Shown here piece after piece: positions 46,593 to 55,594 of a stretch of DNA of 64,000 nt (its first letter is position 1; every line of letters starts with the position of its first letter). Source of the DNA: Minisyncoccota bacterium. Its GTDB lineage: Bacteria > Patescibacteriota > Minisyncoccia > Phycocordibacterales > GWA1-40-21. Where the stretch lies: contig JBAZRH010000001.1 in assembly GCA_041663045.1 (NCBI GenBank), positions 84,403 through 148,402 of the forward strand, written 5' to 3'. The position numbers and the translations under genes were made by a program. Under the pieces are notes generated by a model that saw nothing but the letters and a program-made list of their open reading frames with translations, was not told where the DNA came from and searched no databases.

Positions 46593-48377
46593 TTATTTAT
46601 CAGATATAAACCCGCCAGACTGAATTGTCCAGAGCTTATTATATAAACTACTCTTTGAATTTATAAGATCACCATGTGTTCCTTCTTCTGTTATTCTGCC
46701 TTCTGCTATAACCACAATTCTATCCATTTTCTTAATAGTTGAGAGTCTATGCGCTATCACTATAACTGTTTTTCCCTTCATTAAGTTTTCGAGTGCGTTT
46801 TGAATTAGCATCTCTGATTCAGAGTCTAAACTTGAAGTAGCCTCATCTAAGATCAGGATAGGTGCGTTTTTAAGAATCGCTCTAGCAATAGCAATTCTTT
46901 GTCTTTCTCCACCGGAAAGTTTTATTCCCCTTTCACCGACAAAGGTATCATACTTCAAAGGCAGAGAGTCTATAAATTCATTACAATGTGCCAATTTAGC
47001 AGCCCTAAAGACTTCTTCATCACTGGCGTTTTCTCTGCCATATCTTATGTTTTCAAGTAAAGTTCTGTGAAAGAGTATTGGGTCTTGAGGAACCAAACTT
47101 ATTTGACTGTGTAAACTTCTCTGGGTAACTCTTGATATGTCTTGATTGTCGATTTCTATATGGCCGGACGATAGATCATACAAACGTAATATCAATCTAA
47201 TCAAAGTTGTCTTACCGGCTCCCGAAGGGCCAATAAATGCGATTTTTTCTCCAGCAGAAATTTTTAAATTAATATCTTTAAGTACTTCTCTGGTTTCATT
47301 AAAATTGAAGCCGACATTTTTGAGACTTATCTCCCCAGAGACGATTTTTAGATCTTTAGCTTTTATGACATCTTTGACCTCGTGTGGCGTCAGAAGTATC
47401 TCTACCATTTCTCTTGAGTCGGCAAGGCTTTCATATATTCCACGCACTATTCTGTTGAGTCCCCAAAGCCTTTGTGCCAGTGCTATGATATAGACTTGTA
47501 TAAGGACAAAAGTACCTATTGTTGCAAGTCCTTTACTCCAAAATATAGTTGTATAATAAAACGCCAAAAACTCAACCACAGAGATTAGTACAATTTGTAC
47601 AGCATCAGTTAACTGGCCTAAATTCCAAGAGAATCTGGTTTTCTCTGCTTGATCATTTGTAATTTCTTTAAAGTTATTTGTCTCTTTTTCATAGGTAGTA
47701 AATAAAGTAATCGCGTTGTGATTTGTTATGTTGTCAGAAAGTACTCCTGTAACATATGAATCTGTCGAGGATACTTGTATATCATATTTCATTTTCCACC
47801 TCGAAAACAAGACATTGAAGGTAGAGTATGAAATCACCCAAAGTATTATGACAAGAGAAATCAACGGCGCTACAAACCAGGTTACTATCACAGACCCAAT
47901 AATTGTGATTATGAGCGGGACTAAGTTAAATGCAAAACTGTCGGAGAGTCTCTCAAAAGACCTGCTAAATCTATTGACTCTTTGTACCAACGATCCAGTA
48001 AAATTATTTGTAAAGAAACTATAAGAATGTAGCATCATATAGTCAAATGAAATCTGTCTAAGCCTAGCCATAACCCTAGATTCCATGATGTTATAAATAA
48101 ACATTCCGCTTTGAAAGAATAATATACTTATTATGTTTAGGACGGCGATTATTATTATTGTATAGACTAGTGTATGAATATCATCTGTTTTGTTCTGTAT
48201 ATTGCCCAACAAATCAAAAAAGCGTTTATAAAATAATGGTGTGAAGATACCTATAACAGTTGCTGAAATGAGGCAAAAATAACTAATAAAAAACAGCAAT
48301 CTGTATGGCCTGACACCGTACCAGAATTTTTCATATATCTGTCTATTGGAAACTGTATTTTCCTTTTGTTTATTCAT
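46593..48377 (-). CDS. ABC transporter, fused permease/ATP-binding (type I exporter, MsbA-like)
   Basis: Six N-terminal TM helices. Walker A GPSGAGKTT. Signature LSGGERQRIAIARA. Walker B ILILDEATS. Confidence 0.85.
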   Translation of the reverse strand: MNKQKENTVSNRQIYEKFWYGVRPYRLLFFISYFCLISATVIGIFTPLFYKRFFDLLGNIQNKTDDIHTLVYTIIIIAVLNIISILFFQSGMFIYNIMESRVMARLRQISFDYMMLHSYSFFTNNFTGSLVQRVNRFSRSFERLSDSFAFNLVPLIITIIGSVIVTWFVAPLISLVIILWVISYSTFNVLFSRWKMKYDIQVSSTDSYVTGVLSDNITNHNAITLFTTYEKETNNFKEITNDQAEKTRFSWNLGQLTDAVQIVLISVVEFLAFYYTTIFWSKGLATIGTFVLIQVYIIALAQRLWGLNRIVRGIYESLADSREMVEILLTPHEVKDVIKAKDLKIVSGEISLKNVGFNFNETREVLKDINLKISAGEKIAFIGPSGAGKTTLIRLILRLYDLSSGHIEIDNQDISRVTQRSLHSQISLVPQDPILFHRTLLENIRYGRENASDEEVFRAAKLAHCNEFIDSLPLKYDTFVGERGIKLSGGERQRIAIARAILKNAPILILDEATSSLDSESEMLIQNALENLMKGKTVIVIAHRLSTIKKMDRIVVIAEGRITEEGTHGDLINSKSSLYNKLWTIQSGGFISDK

Positions 48378-49559: not shown

Positions 49560-50237
49560 CTAGGATTTTCCTAGGGTCATAATCTTTAGATATTCATTTA
49601 CAAAATCTTTGACACTAGGACTAGTCCCCCAAAGATTCTGGGCTTTGATTAATTTGTCCTGTAATTCAGGATAAAATAGTTTTTCTTCTATTTCAATAAT
49701 TTCTCTAAATTGAGGTAAATTTAGGATTATTACATTAAATATTTCTGATAATTCCCATAATATTCCAGAGTTTTTATTCAACCCTTTAATTTGATCAAAA
49801 AAGTATTTATCCAAATATTCAAAGAAAGCAAAATGAAGCGATTCATGAAAGATGACTTCAAGAGCATGTTTCAAATCTTTCTTCCAGTAGATTTGGAAAG
49901 TTTTCGTCTCTGGCCACCTAGGATTACAATTAAATATAGAAAGGTAACCATGATAAGTATTTTGACTAAAATCAATATCAAATAATTTTGTTAATTCACC
50001 AAAAAAATGTTTTTGCTTTTCTTCTAAAATTTGTTTAATTCCTTTTTGCTTTTTAAGCATATCTGATTTTTTAGCAGTATAAAAATCATCAATGTATTTA
50101 TTGTAGTTTTTCAGGTTTATTTTAGGATGTTCTTTTTTAATTAGTTCTCCAAAGTTCGCTCCAGCTACAGAAAAATCCCAAAAGTCAGCATAAACCTCGT
50201 AATCTAATTGTTTGTTTAAATCTATTTTAAACATCAT
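49560..50237 (-). CDS. Hypothetical protein with an HExxH motif (putative zinc metallo-protein), immediately downstream of the rSAM/SPASM gene
   Basis: IFHESLHFAFFE contains HExxH. No other recognisable domain. Position suggests possible linkage to the RiPP-like locus. Confidence 0.4.
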   Translation of the reverse strand: MMFKIDLNKQLDYEVYADFWDFSVAGANFGELIKKEHPKINLKNYNKYIDDFYTAKKSDMLKKQKGIKQILEEKQKHFFGELTKLFDIDFSQNTYHGYLSIFNCNPRWPETKTFQIYWKKDLKHALEVIFHESLHFAFFEYLDKYFFDQIKGLNKNSGILWELSEIFNVIILNLPQFREIIEIEEKLFYPELQDKLIKAQNLWGTSPSVKDFVNEYLKIMTLGKS

Positions 50238-50248
50238 TCAATAATAAA

Positions 50249-50275
50249 GCCCCCTTGTGTTTTAAGCAAGGGGGC
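50249..50275 (-). terminator. Hairpin (gcccccttg...caagggggc) between the rSAM stop and the HExxH gene start, with the minus-strand T-run abutting the start codon
   Basis: 9-bp GC stem. Minus-strand TTTATTATT follows and runs into ATGATG. Confidence 0.45.
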
Positions 50276-50296
50276 CGGCTTCCTTTCTCTTGAACT

Positions 50297-51715
50297 TTAG
50301 ACTCTTTTGTACAGGTCCCAGATCAACCATTTGAGGGTCGCTAGGGAGTGAATACAGAAACGGTCGTCTACAGACCAGATACTGCCATTTCGTAGCCATG
50401 ATCCATAAGCACAACCACCACCACAGATACCGAGGGCAGGACACCCAAAGCACTGTGGCATGTTCAAGGGCGTTCGTCTTTTCCACTCACTAATCACGGG
50501 ATTGTGGTGAAAATCGAAGTTTTTCGATACTTTGGCAAAGAAGAATTGCTTAGCACCGATACCTTCATGACAAACACCCAAATGACCATCAGGTGTACAG
50601 ACGAGCTGAGCCCCGAGAGCTTGGCAATCATACGCATGGATACGTTTTTCCATAAAGGACTTTGCCTTACGCATTATTCTGTCTTCGTACACCCCTTCCT
50701 TCCGAGCGAGTTTGAAGTACTCGATCATTCGTTTGGAAACACGTTGCATATATTCTAAACTCACCGTATTGTTTGCCGTATCGACCAGAGGATTCAGGTT
50801 GATTGAGGCAAAGCCATACCTACGATGAAGCTTGAGAAGTGATGGTAGATTGTCAATGTTGTGTTCTCCAACAGTTGTTGAGAGAGAAACGTCTTTCTTG
50901 CCACCAACCCCCTTCAGAAGCTTCACACCCCTTATCGCTTTGTTGAATGATCCGCATCCACCTACGCATATCCTTTCGGTGTCATGAATTTTCTTTGGAC
51001 CATCAATCGATATGGCGATATCGATGTTATCGTGAGCTCCGATAAACCGAGAGATTTCCTCGGTTATCATCGTCCCGTTAGAGACAATGGCTAATCGTAG
51101 CTTTGGTCCCAAGGCGACAACTTCATTCTTGTAAGCAGATTCGATGTATTCCACCGACTGCTTGATCAGAGTGAAGTTGAGGAACGGTTCTCCCCCATAG
51201 AAGAAAATCGTCTTCTTGAGACCGGTATATTCGGGCGGATTGAGTGATAGGTTCCGAAAGAACATGTCAATCGCTTCTTTCGCAACCCTAAACGACATCA
51301 TGCTAGGGCGATATCCCTCTGGCATATTGTTGTTGATGAAGCAGTAGCGACATCGGAGATTACAACTGTCGGTCACAATGAGATAAAGCGTCTCAAGGCC
51401 AGGAGGTAGAACATGAATTCTCCTCTTTTCCTCAAGTAACTTTACATCATCGCTTTCTACAGCCACAATCATTCCGGTCCGCCAAAGTTCTTTTATCACT
51501 CGAACCATCTCTTTCGAGAACATAGGGAACTTTTGATGAAGGTGCTCTGTCGTTGTTCCCAAATGTAGCAATTCCACAACCTGCAGGTATTTCTTTCGAA
51601 GAAACACCAGTTCCATGTTCAGCGAGTGGTAAAGGGCAATGTGACCTCTACCTTTTTCACAAAACAGGTGTGTCCACGAGGACAATCTCATAGATAGATT
51701 ACGTATTTTTTTCAT
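50297..51715 (-). CDS. Radical SAM / SPASM-domain enzyme with a ~115-aa N-terminal extension (RiPP maturase-like)
   Basis: CNLRCRYC is the Cx3Cx2C radical SAM cluster at residues 118-125. C-terminal SPASM signature CFGCPALGICGGGC plus additional Cys. N-terminal extension precedes the radical SAM core. Good SD (AAAGGAGA). Confidence 0.85.
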   Translation of the reverse strand: MKKIRNLSMRLSSWTHLFCEKGRGHIALYHSLNMELVFLRKKYLQVVELLHLGTTTEHLHQKFPMFSKEMVRVIKELWRTGMIVAVESDDVKLLEEKRRIHVLPPGLETLYLIVTDSCNLRCRYCFINNNMPEGYRPSMMSFRVAKEAIDMFFRNLSLNPPEYTGLKKTIFFYGGEPFLNFTLIKQSVEYIESAYKNEVVALGPKLRLAIVSNGTMITEEISRFIGAHDNIDIAISIDGPKKIHDTERICVGGCGSFNKAIRGVKLLKGVGGKKDVSLSTTVGEHNIDNLPSLLKLHRRYGFASINLNPLVDTANNTVSLEYMQRVSKRMIEYFKLARKEGVYEDRIMRKAKSFMEKRIHAYDCQALGAQLVCTPDGHLGVCHEGIGAKQFFFAKVSKNFDFHHNPVISEWKRRTPLNMPQCFGCPALGICGGGCAYGSWLRNGSIWSVDDRFCIHSLATLKWLIWDLYKRV

Positions 51716-51743
51716 CTACCATTCTCCTTTCTAGTTTTGGTTT

Positions 51744-51780
51744 AAAAAAAGAGGCTGGACGATACGCACGTCCAAGCCTC
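51744..51780 (-). terminator. Intrinsic terminator/attenuator between the precursor-peptide candidate and the rSAM gene (minus strand: gaggcttggacg-tgcgtat-cgtccagcctc + TTTTTTT)
   Basis: 11-bp stem with one bulge, followed by a 7-T run on the transcribed strand. Location is 20 nt after the peptide stop and 28 nt before the rSAM SD. Confidence 0.7.
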
Positions 51781-51800
51781 AGCCCACGAAGAGCGTCTCA

Positions 51801-51899
51801 TTAGCATGAGCATCCGCACTGGCACTTGCTCAGTGCGACTTTGCCGAGATCGATTTTGCCGATCACGGATCTTCGCTTGGCACTGCCTATCTTTTTCAT
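51801..51899 (-). CDS. Candidate RiPP precursor peptide, 32 aa: MKKIGSAKRRSVIGKIDLGKVALSKCQCGCSC
   Basis: Hand-translated; not in the ORF track. AAAGGG lies 6 nt upstream of the ATG. Basic leader-like N-terminus and a C-terminal CxCxCxC cluster. A leaky terminator and an rSAM/SPASM gene follow. Confidence 0.5.
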   Translation of the reverse strand: MKKIGSAKRRSVIGKIDLGKVALSKCQCGCSC

Positions 51900-51998
51900 G
51901 GCTTGCCCTTTCTTTGTGATGAACTACCACTACCTTAGAACTCCTAAGGTTTCTGCTATAAAGCGTAACAAATAATCAAATCACCGTCAAATCCCTCT

Positions 51999-53624
51999 TT
52001 ATTTCACCGGCAACGCCACAAAAAACCTCGCCCCCTTGCCTCTCCCATCGGATTCCGCCCAGATTTTGCCGGCGTGGTTTTCTACGATTTTCTTGACGAT
52101 ATATAAGCCGTAGCCGGTGCTGTTTACATTGTATTTTAGAGAGTCTTCACCCTTACCTCCTTCGGTAAAGAGCTTGGTCTTATCTTTCTCCGTAAAGCCT
52201 ATTCCTGTATCGCTCACCTCAAACACAGCTCTCTTTTTACCCTCCACCATAACCGCTTTTAGAGAAATAGTAAGCCCTCCGCTTGGCGTGTATTTGATAG
52301 AATTATCTATGAGATTTTTGAAAACTTGCGTGATCTGTATTTGGTCTGCCAAGACGACGACAGGTGTATCGGAAATATTTGTCTTCAGCGTAAGTCCTTT
52401 GTCGGCAAGCTCTTTTGCAAAGTTGGCACAGACATCTTTTACCACGAGAGAAAGGTCGACATCTTTTAGATTGTAAGCGACAGTCCCCTTTTTGTAGTTG
52501 GACGCGCCGAGAATATCTTGAATCATAGTGACGGCATTGTTGTCCGAAAGAAGCCCTTCTTTTGCCACCGCTTTCAATGTATCCGAGCTTTTTTCAAAAT
52601 CATCTTCCAGAATCCCCGCAAAAATCATCTTGCTCTTTGTAAAGAAACCCTTTAGCTGGTGAGAAATGAAATGTATAAGAGATGTTTGATTGTTATTAGC
52701 AATCTCCAGCTCCTCTCGCAAAGCAACTTCCTTTTTGACACTGCGGATAATGACAAGCCCAAGCCAGCCAGAAATCACAAGTGTCAGGGCGGTAAGTATC
52801 CTATTTACATCACTCTGAATGAAGAAGAATTCTGATCCAATAATAATAATCAAAGACCAAACAAGTGCCTGTGTGGCAAGGAGCTTAATATCAAATGCTT
52901 TGAATTTGACGATGATATAAGCGATAACTGCCAAAAAGATAGGCATGCCAGCCAATGCTATGAGTGACCAGTTATAACTTTCTACATAATCAGATATATA
53001 TAGTACAGCGAAATAAAAGGCTAAGAAAAAAGCGATACCAATAAAGAATATTGTGTTTTTAAGACGATTTTGTCTTAAGATCTTAAAAAAGCTTACTATA
53101 TATGAATAGATAATCAAACACATGTAAAATATATCTGCAAAGGGTACAAAACGATTTATGACATTTGAGTTTTCATTTGCTTGGCAAAGTATTGTGTCGT
53201 AATTTTGTAAGACCATTCCCATGACTGTAAAATAGAAAATGGGCAAAATTGGGATTAGTAATATTAGGTTTGTCCCTAAAGATATCTTTTTATTAAAGAA
53301 GAATATGTAGGTGAAATTGAAAGATAGAAAGAAAAACGATACCTCAAGGAGTTCCATTACTGACCATACAAACATGGTTAATGAACCGTTATAACACATG
53401 ATCCAAGTTATTAGATCTATTATTACCCAAACAACAAATATAATAACCATGGTAGAAAAATACCTTGATAAGATATCTTTTTTATTCTTAATTAAGATAA
53501 AGAGAGCAAAAAAAATACTTATTAATATAACTGGCAAGTGTGAATAGTAGACCAATACAACTGGGATTTGTTCCTGAAGAGCTTGCAAACAGCCTTGAAT
53601 ATTGGTGATATAATTAAAGATCAT
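51999..53624 (-). CDS. Sensor histidine kinase (multi-TM sensor, HisKA-like region, HATPase_c)
   Basis: About seven N-terminal TM helices. H-box-like FISHQLKG. N, G1 and G2 boxes (LIDNSIKYT, DTGIGF, GYGLYIVKKIVENHAG). Confidence 0.8.
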   Translation of the reverse strand: MIFNYITNIQGCLQALQEQIPVVLVYYSHLPVILISIFFALFILIKNKKDILSRYFSTMVIIFVVWVIIDLITWIMCYNGSLTMFVWSVMELLEVSFFFLSFNFTYIFFFNKKISLGTNLILLIPILPIFYFTVMGMVLQNYDTILCQANENSNVINRFVPFADIFYMCLIIYSYIVSFFKILRQNRLKNTIFFIGIAFFLAFYFAVLYISDYVESYNWSLIALAGMPIFLAVIAYIIVKFKAFDIKLLATQALVWSLIIIIGSEFFFIQSDVNRILTALTLVISGWLGLVIIRSVKKEVALREELEIANNNQTSLIHFISHQLKGFFTKSKMIFAGILEDDFEKSSDTLKAVAKEGLLSDNNAVTMIQDILGASNYKKGTVAYNLKDVDLSLVVKDVCANFAKELADKGLTLKTNISDTPVVVLADQIQITQVFKNLIDNSIKYTPSGGLTISLKAVMVEGKKRAVFEVSDTGIGFTEKDKTKLFTEGGKGEDSLKYNVNSTGYGLYIVKKIVENHAGKIWAESDGRGKGARFFVALPVK

Positions 53625-53663: not shown

Positions 53664-54458
53664 CTAGGTAAAGCTTTGTGGGTAGATAGATGGAGTTTTT
53701 GACAAATTGATAATTTCATCTAACCTTTCTCTTGGATACCCCCACCACTTAGGATTATTTTCATCACTGATTTCTTGCATCTTACATATTAGAGGCTTTT
53801 CACCAAACTTATCGTGTAAATATTCAAGTGCGGGTATTGCTATTTCATTTAGAAAAATGGATTCCTCACCATGATCCCTAAAATTGTCGAAAAGTATACC
53901 ATTGCAGATAAACAGAGCAAACATTTTTTTGTAGTATTCCTTAGCATACGGTCCATTTTTATGGAACCAAAGAGAAATGTCAAAGATATCCTTCATATTA
54001 TCAGGATAAAACGACTTCAAAAGTCTGTGATGAAAGGAAACCAATGATTCTCCCCATAGTGTATTAATGTCTGGTATTAATTTACCTTCACTTGTATCAA
54101 AATCTATGACTTTAAAGCTACGAGTGTTAACGTGCCCTTTTGAATCGGTGTTTAAATAAAATGACATTTTACCCAATGAATACTTATCTTCATTTATGGC
54201 CACGAATTTATCCTCTGTGTATTCAAATAAAATAGGTCTTGCATTAATTTTCTTAGTTTTTTCTAAAAAAATATCAAGCTCATAATCAGGAGTAAAAATG
54301 TTACGAAAAAGGGCCGCATTTATTTCACCACTTAACATTGGTTCTGGTATCTCCCCTAAGAAATCCGTGACTTTTTTCACAAGTTCCTTATCCCTTCTTC
54401 TTTCTTTCAAAATCCTAACTGCTTCCTCTGGCTCTGTATAAAAATCTTCAACTTTCAT
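53664..54458 (-). CDS. Hypothetical protein (264 aa)
   Basis: Uninterrupted ORF with balanced composition. No recognisable motif. Confidence 0.4.
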   Translation of the reverse strand: MKVEDFYTEPEEAVRILKERRRDKELVKKVTDFLGEIPEPMLSGEINAALFRNIFTPDYELDIFLEKTKKINARPILFEYTEDKFVAINEDKYSLGKMSFYLNTDSKGHVNTRSFKVIDFDTSEGKLIPDINTLWGESLVSFHHRLLKSFYPDNMKDIFDISLWFHKNGPYAKEYYKKMFALFICNGILFDNFRDHGEESIFLNEIAIPALEYLHDKFGEKPLICKMQEISDENNPKWWGYPRERLDEIINLSKTPSIYPQSFT

Positions 54459-54475: not shown

Positions 54476-55594
54476 TTATTTTTCAGCAATTATAAAACAA
54501 TTTTCTTCCCCGAAGCTTGGTATTAACACGTCTTCTTTGTTTACTTTTGAAAAAGTCTTTTTGGCAATTCTTTCTATGATTTTAGCTGTATCCAAGTGGC
54601 TTTTTGTGACAATTGAAGTCCCCGCCTGTATGGATAGCCAGCCGTCTTTGTTTAGGTGTGCCTTTATTAATGGAACAATTTGCTCAAAGAATCTAGTATA
54701 GTCTTCTGCGTAGGTATTATCAAACTCAAGAGCTGGATTGTCGGTCAAATCAGAGACGATACCATCTACCGAATTTCCTTTCACGGCCTTTAAATATTGT
54801 AGTGCATCACCAATGTATAATTTTACATTTGGATGATCAAATACTTTTTGTCCTAAATATTTTCTAGCGACATTCACTACTTCTACATCAAGATCTACAA
54901 TAGTTATCTTAAGGTCCGGATTAATCCTAAGGGCTTCTTCAGCCACATAGCCATCTCCCCCACCTAAGATTATTATTTCTTTGTCTGTCTTTGAAAGGCC
55001 TTTTAGTATAGCTCTATCATATAAGGTATGGTCTTTTTCCGAGGTTTGTATGAGATTGTCTATGATCATACAGCGGCCAAACTCTTCCGTATCGACAATT
55101 TCAATCTGCTGGAATGGAGATTTTATGTTTTCTACCCTTTTCGTTACGTGTATTACTTGTTCTGAACCGTCTTTATAAACAGCCATTTTTATAATAGGTT
55201 CATTTCCGTTTTTCTTTGAAATTAAATTATAAGTTCTATCTACGGTCTTTACAACCGCTTCTCTGTGACAAATCTTTTCAAGAATGTAGTCGACAATTTT
55301 CCTTGTCATCTTCTCACTTGAACAGCTATATATATCAATAGAAATATATTCGTGTTCAGGCCAGGAGTGAAATGACATATGTGAAGTCGATAACAAGAAG
55401 AAACCAGTTACTCCCTGTGGGTCAAAACTATAAAATGCGTGGTTAAGTATTTTTATATCCGTTCCATTGATTGATTCCATCAGCACCTTCTTGAGGAAGT
55501 CAGAAGAATTTATCTGCTTTCTATTACATCCAAAAAGATCCACAATGTAGTGGGTCCCGATAATTCTATTATCATCAAGCGATTTGTTTTTCAT
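54476..55594 (-). CDS. Fusion of S-adenosylmethionine decarboxylase (SpeH/SpeD class 1b-like) and spermidine synthase (SpeE)
   Basis: N-terminal GVTGFFLLSTSHMSFHSWPEHEYISIDIYSC resembles the SpeH proenzyme core, but with TS where ES is usual at the self-cleavage site. C-terminal ILGGGDGYVAEEAL...DLTDNPA is the aminopropyltransferase signature. Confidence 0.75.
   Translation of the reverse strand: MKNKSLDDNRIIGTHYIVDLFGCNRKQINSSDFLKKVLMESINGTDIKILNHAFYSFDPQGVTGFFLLSTSHMSFHSWPEHEYISIDIYSCSSEKMTRKIVDYILEKICHREAVVKTVDRTYNLISKKNGNEPIIKMAVYKDGSEQVIHVTKRVENIKSPFQQIEIVDTEEFGRCMIIDNLIQTSEKDHTLYDRAILKGLSKTDKEIIILGGGDGYVAEEALRINPDLKITIVDLDVEVVNVARKYLGQKVFDHPNVKLYIGDALQYLKAVKGNSVDGIVSDLTDNPALEFDNTYAEDYTRFFEQIVPLIKAHLNKDGWLSIQAGTSIVTKSHLDTAKIIERIAKKTFSKVNKEDVLIPSFGEENCFIIAEK

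Follow-up and report, generated by a model that had tools for sequence, protein, structure and literature searches.

Among the described peptide maturases of the radical S-adenosylmethionine (radical SAM) superfamily, those closest to the system considered here include CteB of the SCIFF systems, PapB and QhpD, which act on Cys-rich substrates and combine a RiPP recognition element (RRE; RiPP, a peptide made by the ribosome and modified after translation), a radical SAM domain and a SPASM domain in one polypeptide. In PapB and Tte1186, the open site of auxiliary cluster 1 binds the cross-linking cysteine. The FibroRumin family, represented by the maturase model TIGR04136 and the peptide model TIGR04135, is also catalogued, and a literature search for these three names found no published chemistry. 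The subject of the present analysis is a group of three adjoining genes on the minus strand of a 64,000-nt stretch of contig JBAZRH010000001.1 (positions 84,403 to 148,402; assembly GCA_041663045.1), hereafter the window, which encode a small Cys-rich peptide, a radical SAM/SPASM enzyme and a zincin-like protein with an HExxH motif (Table 1). They are read as a three-gene RiPP cassette of Candidatus Paceibacterota, within the candidate phyla radiation (CPR), composed of a precursor, a maturase with RRE, radical SAM and SPASM domains and a zincin-like partner and forming a divergent branch of the FibroRumin type; this statement as a whole, including the mechanism set out below, is given a probability of about 0.7. 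Taken alone, the narrower proposal of a three-gene RiPP cassette in which a maturase with an RRE modifies the peptide encoded upstream is very probable. All features listed in an initial annotation of this DNA were recovered at their positions, and the order of precursor, hairpin and modifying enzyme, from which a RiPP-type cassette had been proposed, is conserved in related loci. The interpretation offered at that time held for the cassette, the RRE, the conserved small gene and the partner protein, and failed for the inclusion of a kinase and an exporter and for the supposed lack of any known family. The three refuting conditions set out with it were tested or approximated, and the idea withstood each of them.

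The locus was compared with 79 loci containing relatives of the radical SAM enzyme, obtained in a scan with one genome per species; the enzyme is at least 45% identical to that of the window in 18 of them, and upstream sequence is available for 16 of these 18. A homologous small open reading frame (ORF) is located 60–103 nt 5′ of the radical SAM gene in all 16, and in 14 it encodes the exact sequence C-x-C-G-C-S-C. When these 14 peptides are aligned with that of the window (alignment A3, 15 sequences), no variation is seen at M1, G14 or I16 or in the CxCGCSC tail, the middle part is variable and 0–7 residues follow the last Cys. The core codons differ synonymously among loci (TGC/TGT, GGA/GGT/GGC/GGG and TCA/TCG/TCC/TCT) and the amino acids are fixed, which points to selection on the protein. 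The leader corresponds to approximately residues 1–25, including the invariant G14 and I16, and the core to C26-x-C28-G29-C30-S31-C32, after which the stop codon follows directly. The ribosome-binding site that had been noted for the ORF is present, and GAAAGGAG / GAAAGGGGG-type Shine-Dalgarno motifs occupy the equivalent place in related loci; the precursor gene is present in a single copy in the window.

Judged by this conservation, the 32-aa ORF is a genuine gene, conserved among relatives and so far without annotation. It was missing from the ORF list that accompanied the initial annotation, as had been remarked, and likewise has no gene call in the public assembly of identical DNA; a collection of ~15 billion predicted proteins contained none of the ten family members sought in it, an exact-sequence look-up of the precursor gave no match, and no NCBIfam model matched it. 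The gene escapes standard gene calling, and the family is invisible in protein collections. Conservation of the small ORF beside radical SAM homologues, which had been put forward as a check, extends beyond the 16 related loci to metagenomes, where a DNA pattern scan (G-x-I...CxCGC(S/C)C) found four genuine peptides among the 80 matches listed (L086, L087, L111 and L138); a radical SAM gene is next in all four, and an HExxH gene is next where the contig permits. The scan is dominated by low-complexity TGC-repeat DNA and therefore provides no census of the precursor family. An apparently decaying cassette is found in L005 (1-1920), in which the precursor core is shortened to ...GTCICG and a stop codon, the radical SAM frame is broken into two ORFs (424 and 85 aa), and the usual HExxH partner is absent.

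The maturase matches PF04055 with 56 bits (cutoff 29.5), and C118, C122 and C125 are invariant in 31 sequences, as are C364, C382, C422, C425, C431, C435 and C454 in the alignment of these sequences (A1). No separate SPASM Pfam family is present among the four Pfam hits of the protein; by its motifs, the maturase is nevertheless a member of the radical SAM superfamily and of the SPASM subfamily. In CteB, auxiliary cluster 1 is ligated by C344, C362 and C413 and auxiliary cluster 2 by C400, C403, C409 and C432 (PMC10177961). The spacing of the seven SPASM cysteines is identical to that of these cluster ligands, and homology to CteB implies that C364, C382 and C435 would bind auxiliary cluster 1 and C422, C425, C431 and C454 auxiliary cluster 2. 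With such spacing, the protein is expected to supply three ligands to auxiliary cluster 1 and to leave one site open, an arrangement shared by CteB, PapB and Tte1186.

A profile search of the PDB (31 homologues) gave TigE (8VPO; aligned from profile position 5 with 166 bits) and CteB (5WGG; 155 bits) as its best two matches. The profile aligned onto residues 4–105 of TigE, and residues 3–85 of the TigE crystal structure constitute a winged-helix RRE (PMC10878394). In the AlphaFold2 model of the maturase, which has a predicted local distance difference test score (pLDDT) of 92.9, the N-terminus consists of strands 8–11, 15–19, 25–30 and 35–40 and helices 41–52, 56–62 and 64–79 at pLDDT >90. Foldseek placed the full model on CteB with a template modelling score of 0.75–0.80 over ~475 columns, against ~390 columns for the anaerobic sulfatase maturase (anSME), residues 14–331 of which align to profile positions 115–433, leaving the first ~110 residues as an addition. 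The alignment to the TigE RRE, the modelled strands and helices and the full-length match to CteB together indicate that the N-terminal extension is a predicted RRE-type domain, and from this we infer peptide binding. The initial annotation had described the extension as RRE/PqqD-like and the architecture as unlike that of anSME, and had proposed the RRE-like fold and a grouping apart from anSME as a check; both parts were borne out, as the anSME alignment begins only at position 115 and the anSME model TIGR03942 scores 77.4 bits against a cutoff of 349. Assignment of the enzyme as an anSME was accordingly rejected.

When the whole protein was searched against the NCBIfam models, as the same annotation had suggested, the FibroRumin maturase model TIGR04136 was best, with 279.9 bits and an alignment that runs end to end (residues 12–471 on model positions 2–456). 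The next scores were those of PapB (NF047865, 165.9 bits), QhpD (142 bits) and the SCIFF maturase (TIGR03974, 135 bits). A PapB-type ranthipeptide maturase was rejected, the cutoff being 340 bits and the core lacking the Asp or Glu of the expected CX3D/E repeats, and a SCIFF system was rejected on its cutoff of 425 bits and on the failure of any NCBIfam model to match the precursor (SCIFF has six Cys in 45). More generally, the maturase reaches 135–166 bits against cutoffs of 340–453 for the CteB, PapB and QhpD families and is 23% identical to CteB; its substrate differs from theirs in that the core is without their Thr, Asp or Glu acceptors, and the precursor is shorter than SCIFF.

Scores against TIGR04136 form a continuum, from ~790 in a Lachnospiraceae locus (L058) and an unclassified metagenome-assembled genome (MAG; L075) and 461 in Desulfosporosinus (bona fide range 461–791), through 402 and 385 in two CPR relatives, to 250–280 bits in the window clade. 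Cys-rich small ORFs adjoin the enzyme gene in nearly all related loci. With 57 and 69 bits, respectively, the peptides of Desulfosporosinus and L075 exceed the 45-bit cutoff of TIGR04135; weak matches to it (15–21 bits) are given by other CPR variants, such as CDCTACGSCRCTPCK and KCGACNSCTG. Profile-profile comparison of the window precursor with TIGR04135 aligned only the 18-residue leader, with phi-x-G-x-I in common, at a probability of 40%. The window system resembles the FibroRumin systems in the enzyme motifs EW..R(T/S)PL.M and G(V/L/I)(Y/H)EDR(I/V/M)MR, in the position of the precursor immediately upstream, in the leader motif and in a CxC-rich core. It differs from them in a core cut to the seven residues CxCGCSC, without the acidic ...EW tail, in having one precursor instead of two tandem types, and in a zincin-like partner where eight loci, mostly of Firmicutes, have a UvrA-like ABC ATPase.

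Given the sub-cutoff scores, the continuum and the absence of FibroRumin chemistry from the literature found, we read the window system as a divergent branch of a catalogued, chemically uncharacterised family, within which the window core is the most reduced. What is already known is the general type, a radical SAM-SPASM RiPP of the FibroRumin kind; new to the window clade are an enzyme and a precursor that both score below the cutoffs, the minimal core, the unannotated precursor gene, the uncurated partner family and the wide spread in CPR. An earlier statement that the peptide is unlike any named precursor family was too strong, as the enzyme is a full-length, sub-threshold relative of TIGR04136 and its distant relatives adjoin bona fide TIGR04135 peptides that have the phi-x-G-x-I leader.

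The UvrA-like ABC ATPase (711 aa; ABC_tran and UvrA_DNA-bind) is located directly after the maturase in L058 (5396-7540), L064, L067, L069, L072, L074, L075 and L079, the first six of which contain two tandem precursor types and the last two only one that could be found; the CPR branch has neither the ATPase nor the tandem precursor types. Relatives of the radical SAM enzyme were also detected in a Nanoarchaeota MAG (L065; DPANN), together with an HExxH partner and a Cys-rich precursor, in Kosakonia arachidis (L067) and in cyanobacteria (L044 and L046), and several close loci of CPR-like character carry the labels Hyphomicrobium, Bdellovibrionales or Coxiellaceae. These non-CPR occurrences would represent either wide horizontal spread or binning errors.

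To our knowledge, little or no biosynthesis of natural products is generally described for CPR bacteria (Patescibacteria). In the Patescibacteria MAGs of one survey, zero biosynthetic gene clusters were detected (PMC11613949). The compact RiPP cassette described here recurs in many CPR lineages.

ORF clustering identified a single recurrent neighbour of the radical SAM gene, a homologue of the HExxH protein (~234 aa), which is present in 46 of the 79 loci in either orientation. The HExxH protein is therefore a genuine partner, as had been supposed; the leader peptidase role suggested along with this is plausible but unproven. In three loci (L054, L055 and L068) the precursor is encoded directly 5′ of the HExxH gene on the minus strand and the radical SAM gene is convergent on the plus strand, an arrangement that links the HExxH protein with the peptide as such. 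The link between precursor and HExxH genes is consequently at least as tight as that between precursor and radical SAM genes.

The HExxH family comprises ~800 representatives at 50% identity. H131, E132, H135 and F136 are invariant within it, together with W161, S164 and E165, and in the model of the window protein (pLDDT 96) these residues are found on the consecutive helices 122–145 and 158–172, which is the gluzincin arrangement, in a predicted zincin-like fold. Foldseek gave no significant match for the protein, and no Pfam, NCBIfam, PDB sequence or PHROGs match was obtained. Among 34 family members, two weakly matched the model of the YydH/LiaK RiPP metalloprotease, and none matched the alpha-ketoglutarate HExxH model (TIGR04267/IPR026337). 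The ORF begins with two consecutive ATG codons, and an identical public protein, which is annotated as hypothetical in a Candidatus Paceibacterota MAG, has 224 aa, counted from the second; the true start is probably this second ATG (50234).

The gluzincin metallopeptidases that serve as RiPP leader peptidases (M1-type AplP/EryP and YydH/LiaK) resemble the window protein in possessing HExxH and, on the helix that follows, a downstream Glu; a zincin-like fold is predicted for the window protein, and its matches to EryP and to the YydH/LiaK model are weak. On sequence and model, the partner is most economically read as a leader peptidase, a reading that is slightly favoured. HExxH proteins adjoining RiPP radical SAM enzymes can, however, be alpha-ketoglutarate oxygenases (PMC12636437), and for that reason an oxygenase is retained as a live rival: like the Fe(II)-dependent tailoring enzymes ChlH, BpmH and PflC, the protein would hydroxylate or oxidatively cleave the peptide after the radical SAM step. 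This seems improbable; those hydroxylases are ~340 aa in length, against ~225 aa here, and the candidate third ligand of the window protein is a Glu, as in peptidases. The partner defines a zincin-like family, and whether it proves to be a protease or an oxygenase bears on a current question of RiPP enzymology. Another family of unannotated proteins (~250 aa), which likewise contain an HExxH motif (GEHEDTH...AEGLAEY) and have no Pfam match, is encoded beside the cassette in L012 (4708-5463), L005 (2125-2868), L036 and L068; in L012 its gene directly follows the first HExxH gene.

The adjacent and co-oriented radical SAM and HExxH genes of the window differ in G+C content at third codon positions (0.49 versus 0.23). 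A step in the same direction was seen in all nine related loci checked, which include L001 (0.59 versus 0.35), L002, L006 (0.56 versus 0.32) and L012. Horizontal transfer was rejected as the cause, because recurrence of the step in relatives shows it to be no one-off transfer scar particular to the window genome.

It is proposed that the precursor would be transcribed first and that the hairpin following it would end part of the transcripts, or stabilise a short mRNA, so that more precursor than enzyme is made. The leader of ~25 residues, with its phi-x-G-x-I motif, would dock on the N-terminal RRE of the maturase, and a core cysteine thiolate would be bound by the open iron of auxiliary cluster 1. 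The 5′-deoxyadenosyl radical would then take hydrogen from a nearby residue, giving rise to at least one intramolecular thioether in the C-x-C-G-C-S-C core, and the zincin-like protein would cut off the leader to leave a cross-linked peptide of 7–15 residues.

With respect to the first of these steps, spacers of 85 nt and 59 nt separate the precursor from the maturase gene and the maturase from the HExxH gene. A hairpin of 9–17 bp lies between the precursor and maturase genes in all 16 loci, although the sequences are unrelated; that of the window has ~10 bp and begins 20 nt past the precursor stop. Its conserved position supports a role for the structure as an attenuator or an mRNA-stabilising 3′ element that would set the precursor-to-enzyme ratio. 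The second hairpin has a comparable counterpart in eight of the nine loci with a spacer long enough to fold, and neither intergenic hairpin matched an Rfam family.

For the chemistry, one or more Cys-derived thioethers are given about an even chance by analogy: the nearest characterised HMM (hidden Markov model) families are all thioether formers, CteB is the best structural match, the auxiliary-cluster scheme corresponds to that of CteB, PapB and Tte1186, and the CxCxC motif of StsA/StsB donates three Cys-to-Gly sactionines (PMC10288494). The family relationships, the match to CteB and the sactionine precedent also speak against a non-thioether modification, which is considered rather unlikely and could take the form of C-C bonds as made by TigE/TvgB, of epimerisation or of formylglycine-like Cys oxidation; alternatively, the thiols might remain free and the peptide serve as a mini-cofactor that binds metal, Cu or Fe-S. 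Metal binding is typical of CxC repeats, and their presence in the core fits the last of these possibilities. TigE, a cyclopropyl synthase, is moreover the top PDB sequence match, RRE included, and the core does not contain the acceptor residues of known ranthipeptide synthases. In cyclopropyl synthases, a GYW motif is strictly conserved and its Tyr ligates auxiliary cluster 1 (PMC10878394). G338-Y339-W340 of TigE aligns to YEDRIM in the window maturase, within the sequence GVYEDRIMR that belongs to the family-wide motif G(V/L/I)(Y/H)EDR(I/V/M)MR. Cyclopropyl synthesis of the TvgB/TigE kind was rejected for lack of GYW, and the core is also without a conserved Val or Ile and hence without the Val/Ile repeat of those systems. 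A carboxylate of the replacing motif might nevertheless ligate auxiliary cluster 1 instead of substrate, which would again favour a product other than a thioether.

A further reading, regarded as doubtful, is that the CxCGCSC peptides are founders of a CPR-wide minimal RiPP class with new chemistry, the product being a multi-thioether or sulfur cage on Gly, Ser or Ala carbons, or a tiny metal or redox cofactor. As the core is without the known ranthipeptide acceptors, the maturase might build an unprecedented sulfur-based structure. Such a cofactor may be trimmed by the new zincin-like family and used by these ultra-small episymbionts intracellularly or at the interface with the host. The 32-aa substrate is synthetically accessible and offers an entry to the chemistry of the whole FibroRumin superfamily, so far known, as far as our literature search found, only as HMMs.

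Several observations weigh against the reading of the locus as a thioether-forming cassette of FibroRumin type. The maturase does not reach the 400-bit equivalog cutoff of TIGR04136, and the window peptide gave no match to TIGR04135 at E ≤ 10. The thioether assignment is by analogy only, because no FibroRumin chemistry was found in the literature, and the best solved-structure match by sequence, TigE, is a C-C bond former and no more distant a relative. The seven-residue core contains none of the acceptors Asp, Glu, Thr and Asn used by PapB, QhpD, CteB and NxxcB, and between its cysteines offers only A/Q/N/S, Gly and Ser. In two of the close loci (L013 and L016), no HExxH gene is present within 4 kb, and no sigma-70-like promoter was reported 5′ of the precursor in the window. 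A clear U-tract follows the first hairpin in only ~4 of the 16 loci, that of the window included, and the window hairpin is not significant when compared with shuffled sequences (z = -1.4), for which reason the hairpin argument rests on conservation across loci. The strong intrinsic terminator described in the initial annotation is thus present as a hairpin and T7 tract, and termination is one of several roles that it could play.

Table 1. Features of the cassette and its surroundings (window coordinates)
Feature	Position	Strand	Remarks
Sensor histidine kinase, 541 aa	51999-53624	minus	Stop 99 nt before precursor ATG
Shine-Dalgarno-like AAAGGG	51907-51912	minus	7 nt before precursor ATG
Precursor peptide gene, 32 aa, MKKIGSAKRRSVIGKIDLGKVALSKCQCGCSC	51801-51899	minus	Stop directly after last Cys
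First hairpin and T7	51744-51780	minus	G+C-rich hairpin 51780-51751, T7 51750-51744
Radical SAM/SPASM maturase, 472 aa	50297-51715	minus	FibroRumin-like clade
Predicted RRE-type winged-helix domain, ~residues 8-85 of maturase	51461-51694	minus	Model and profile alignment
CX3CX2C for radical SAM [4Fe-4S] cluster (C118, C122, C125; CNLRCRYC, residues 118-125)	51341-51364	minus	
SPASM domain, seven invariant Cys	50300-50638	minus	CFGCPALGICGGGC (Cx2Cx5Cx3C), residues 422-435
Second hairpin, 10-bp stem, -18.6 kcal/mol, then TTTATTATT	50248-50276	minus	Between maturase and HExxH genes
Zincin-like partner, 225 aa	49560-50237	minus	HESLH at residues 131-135, invariant E165
ABC exporter	46593-48377		~1.2 kb past HExxH gene, tryptophanyl-tRNA synthetase gene in between

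The histidine kinase encoded upstream of the precursor crosses the membrane several times in a large N-terminal region and has a clear HATPase_c domain, with no Pfam HisKA hit; the G+C content of its gene is 0.32 in the half for the membrane region and 0.43 in the catalytic half. Both this kinase and the ABC exporter had been counted as parts of the locus, and together with precursor, maturase and peptidase they could be imagined to form one quorum-sensing or bacteriocin locus, given that the genes lie near one another on one strand and that the higher G+C content of the radical SAM gene is also found in the C-terminal half of the kinase gene. This is very improbable and largely refuted by synteny: homologues of the kinase, at a different position, and of the exporter occur in only two of the 79 loci each, the tryptophanyl-tRNA synthetase gene separates the exporter from the cassette, and no response regulator adjoins the kinase. 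Kinase and exporter, being unconserved beside the cassette, are neighbours and not components, and were rejected as such.

Across the 79 loci the cassette has no conserved exporter, immunity gene or regulator with it, and the precursor is without a recognisable export motif. These results, together with retention of the cassette in many reduced-genome CPR lineages, lend some weight to the tentative alternative that its product is an intracellular, housekeeping-type modified peptide, as suspected for SCIFF, and not a secreted bacteriocin or signal. An accessory character is suggested instead by the patchy distribution, the variable orientation, the decaying L005 and the loss of the partner in L013 and L016, and general exporters encoded elsewhere could serve a secreted product.

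Two further genes are present beyond the kinase on the minus strand. A 264-aa ORF (53664-54458) has no Pfam or PHROGs match, and its sole relative among the fetched loci (31% identity) comes from L001, the most closely related locus, where it is located ~2.4 kb past the cassette; this synteny may be coincidence. The 372-aa protein encoded at 54476-55594 carries AdoMet_dc (S-adenosylmethionine decarboxylase) and spermidine/spermine synthase domains in one polypeptide.

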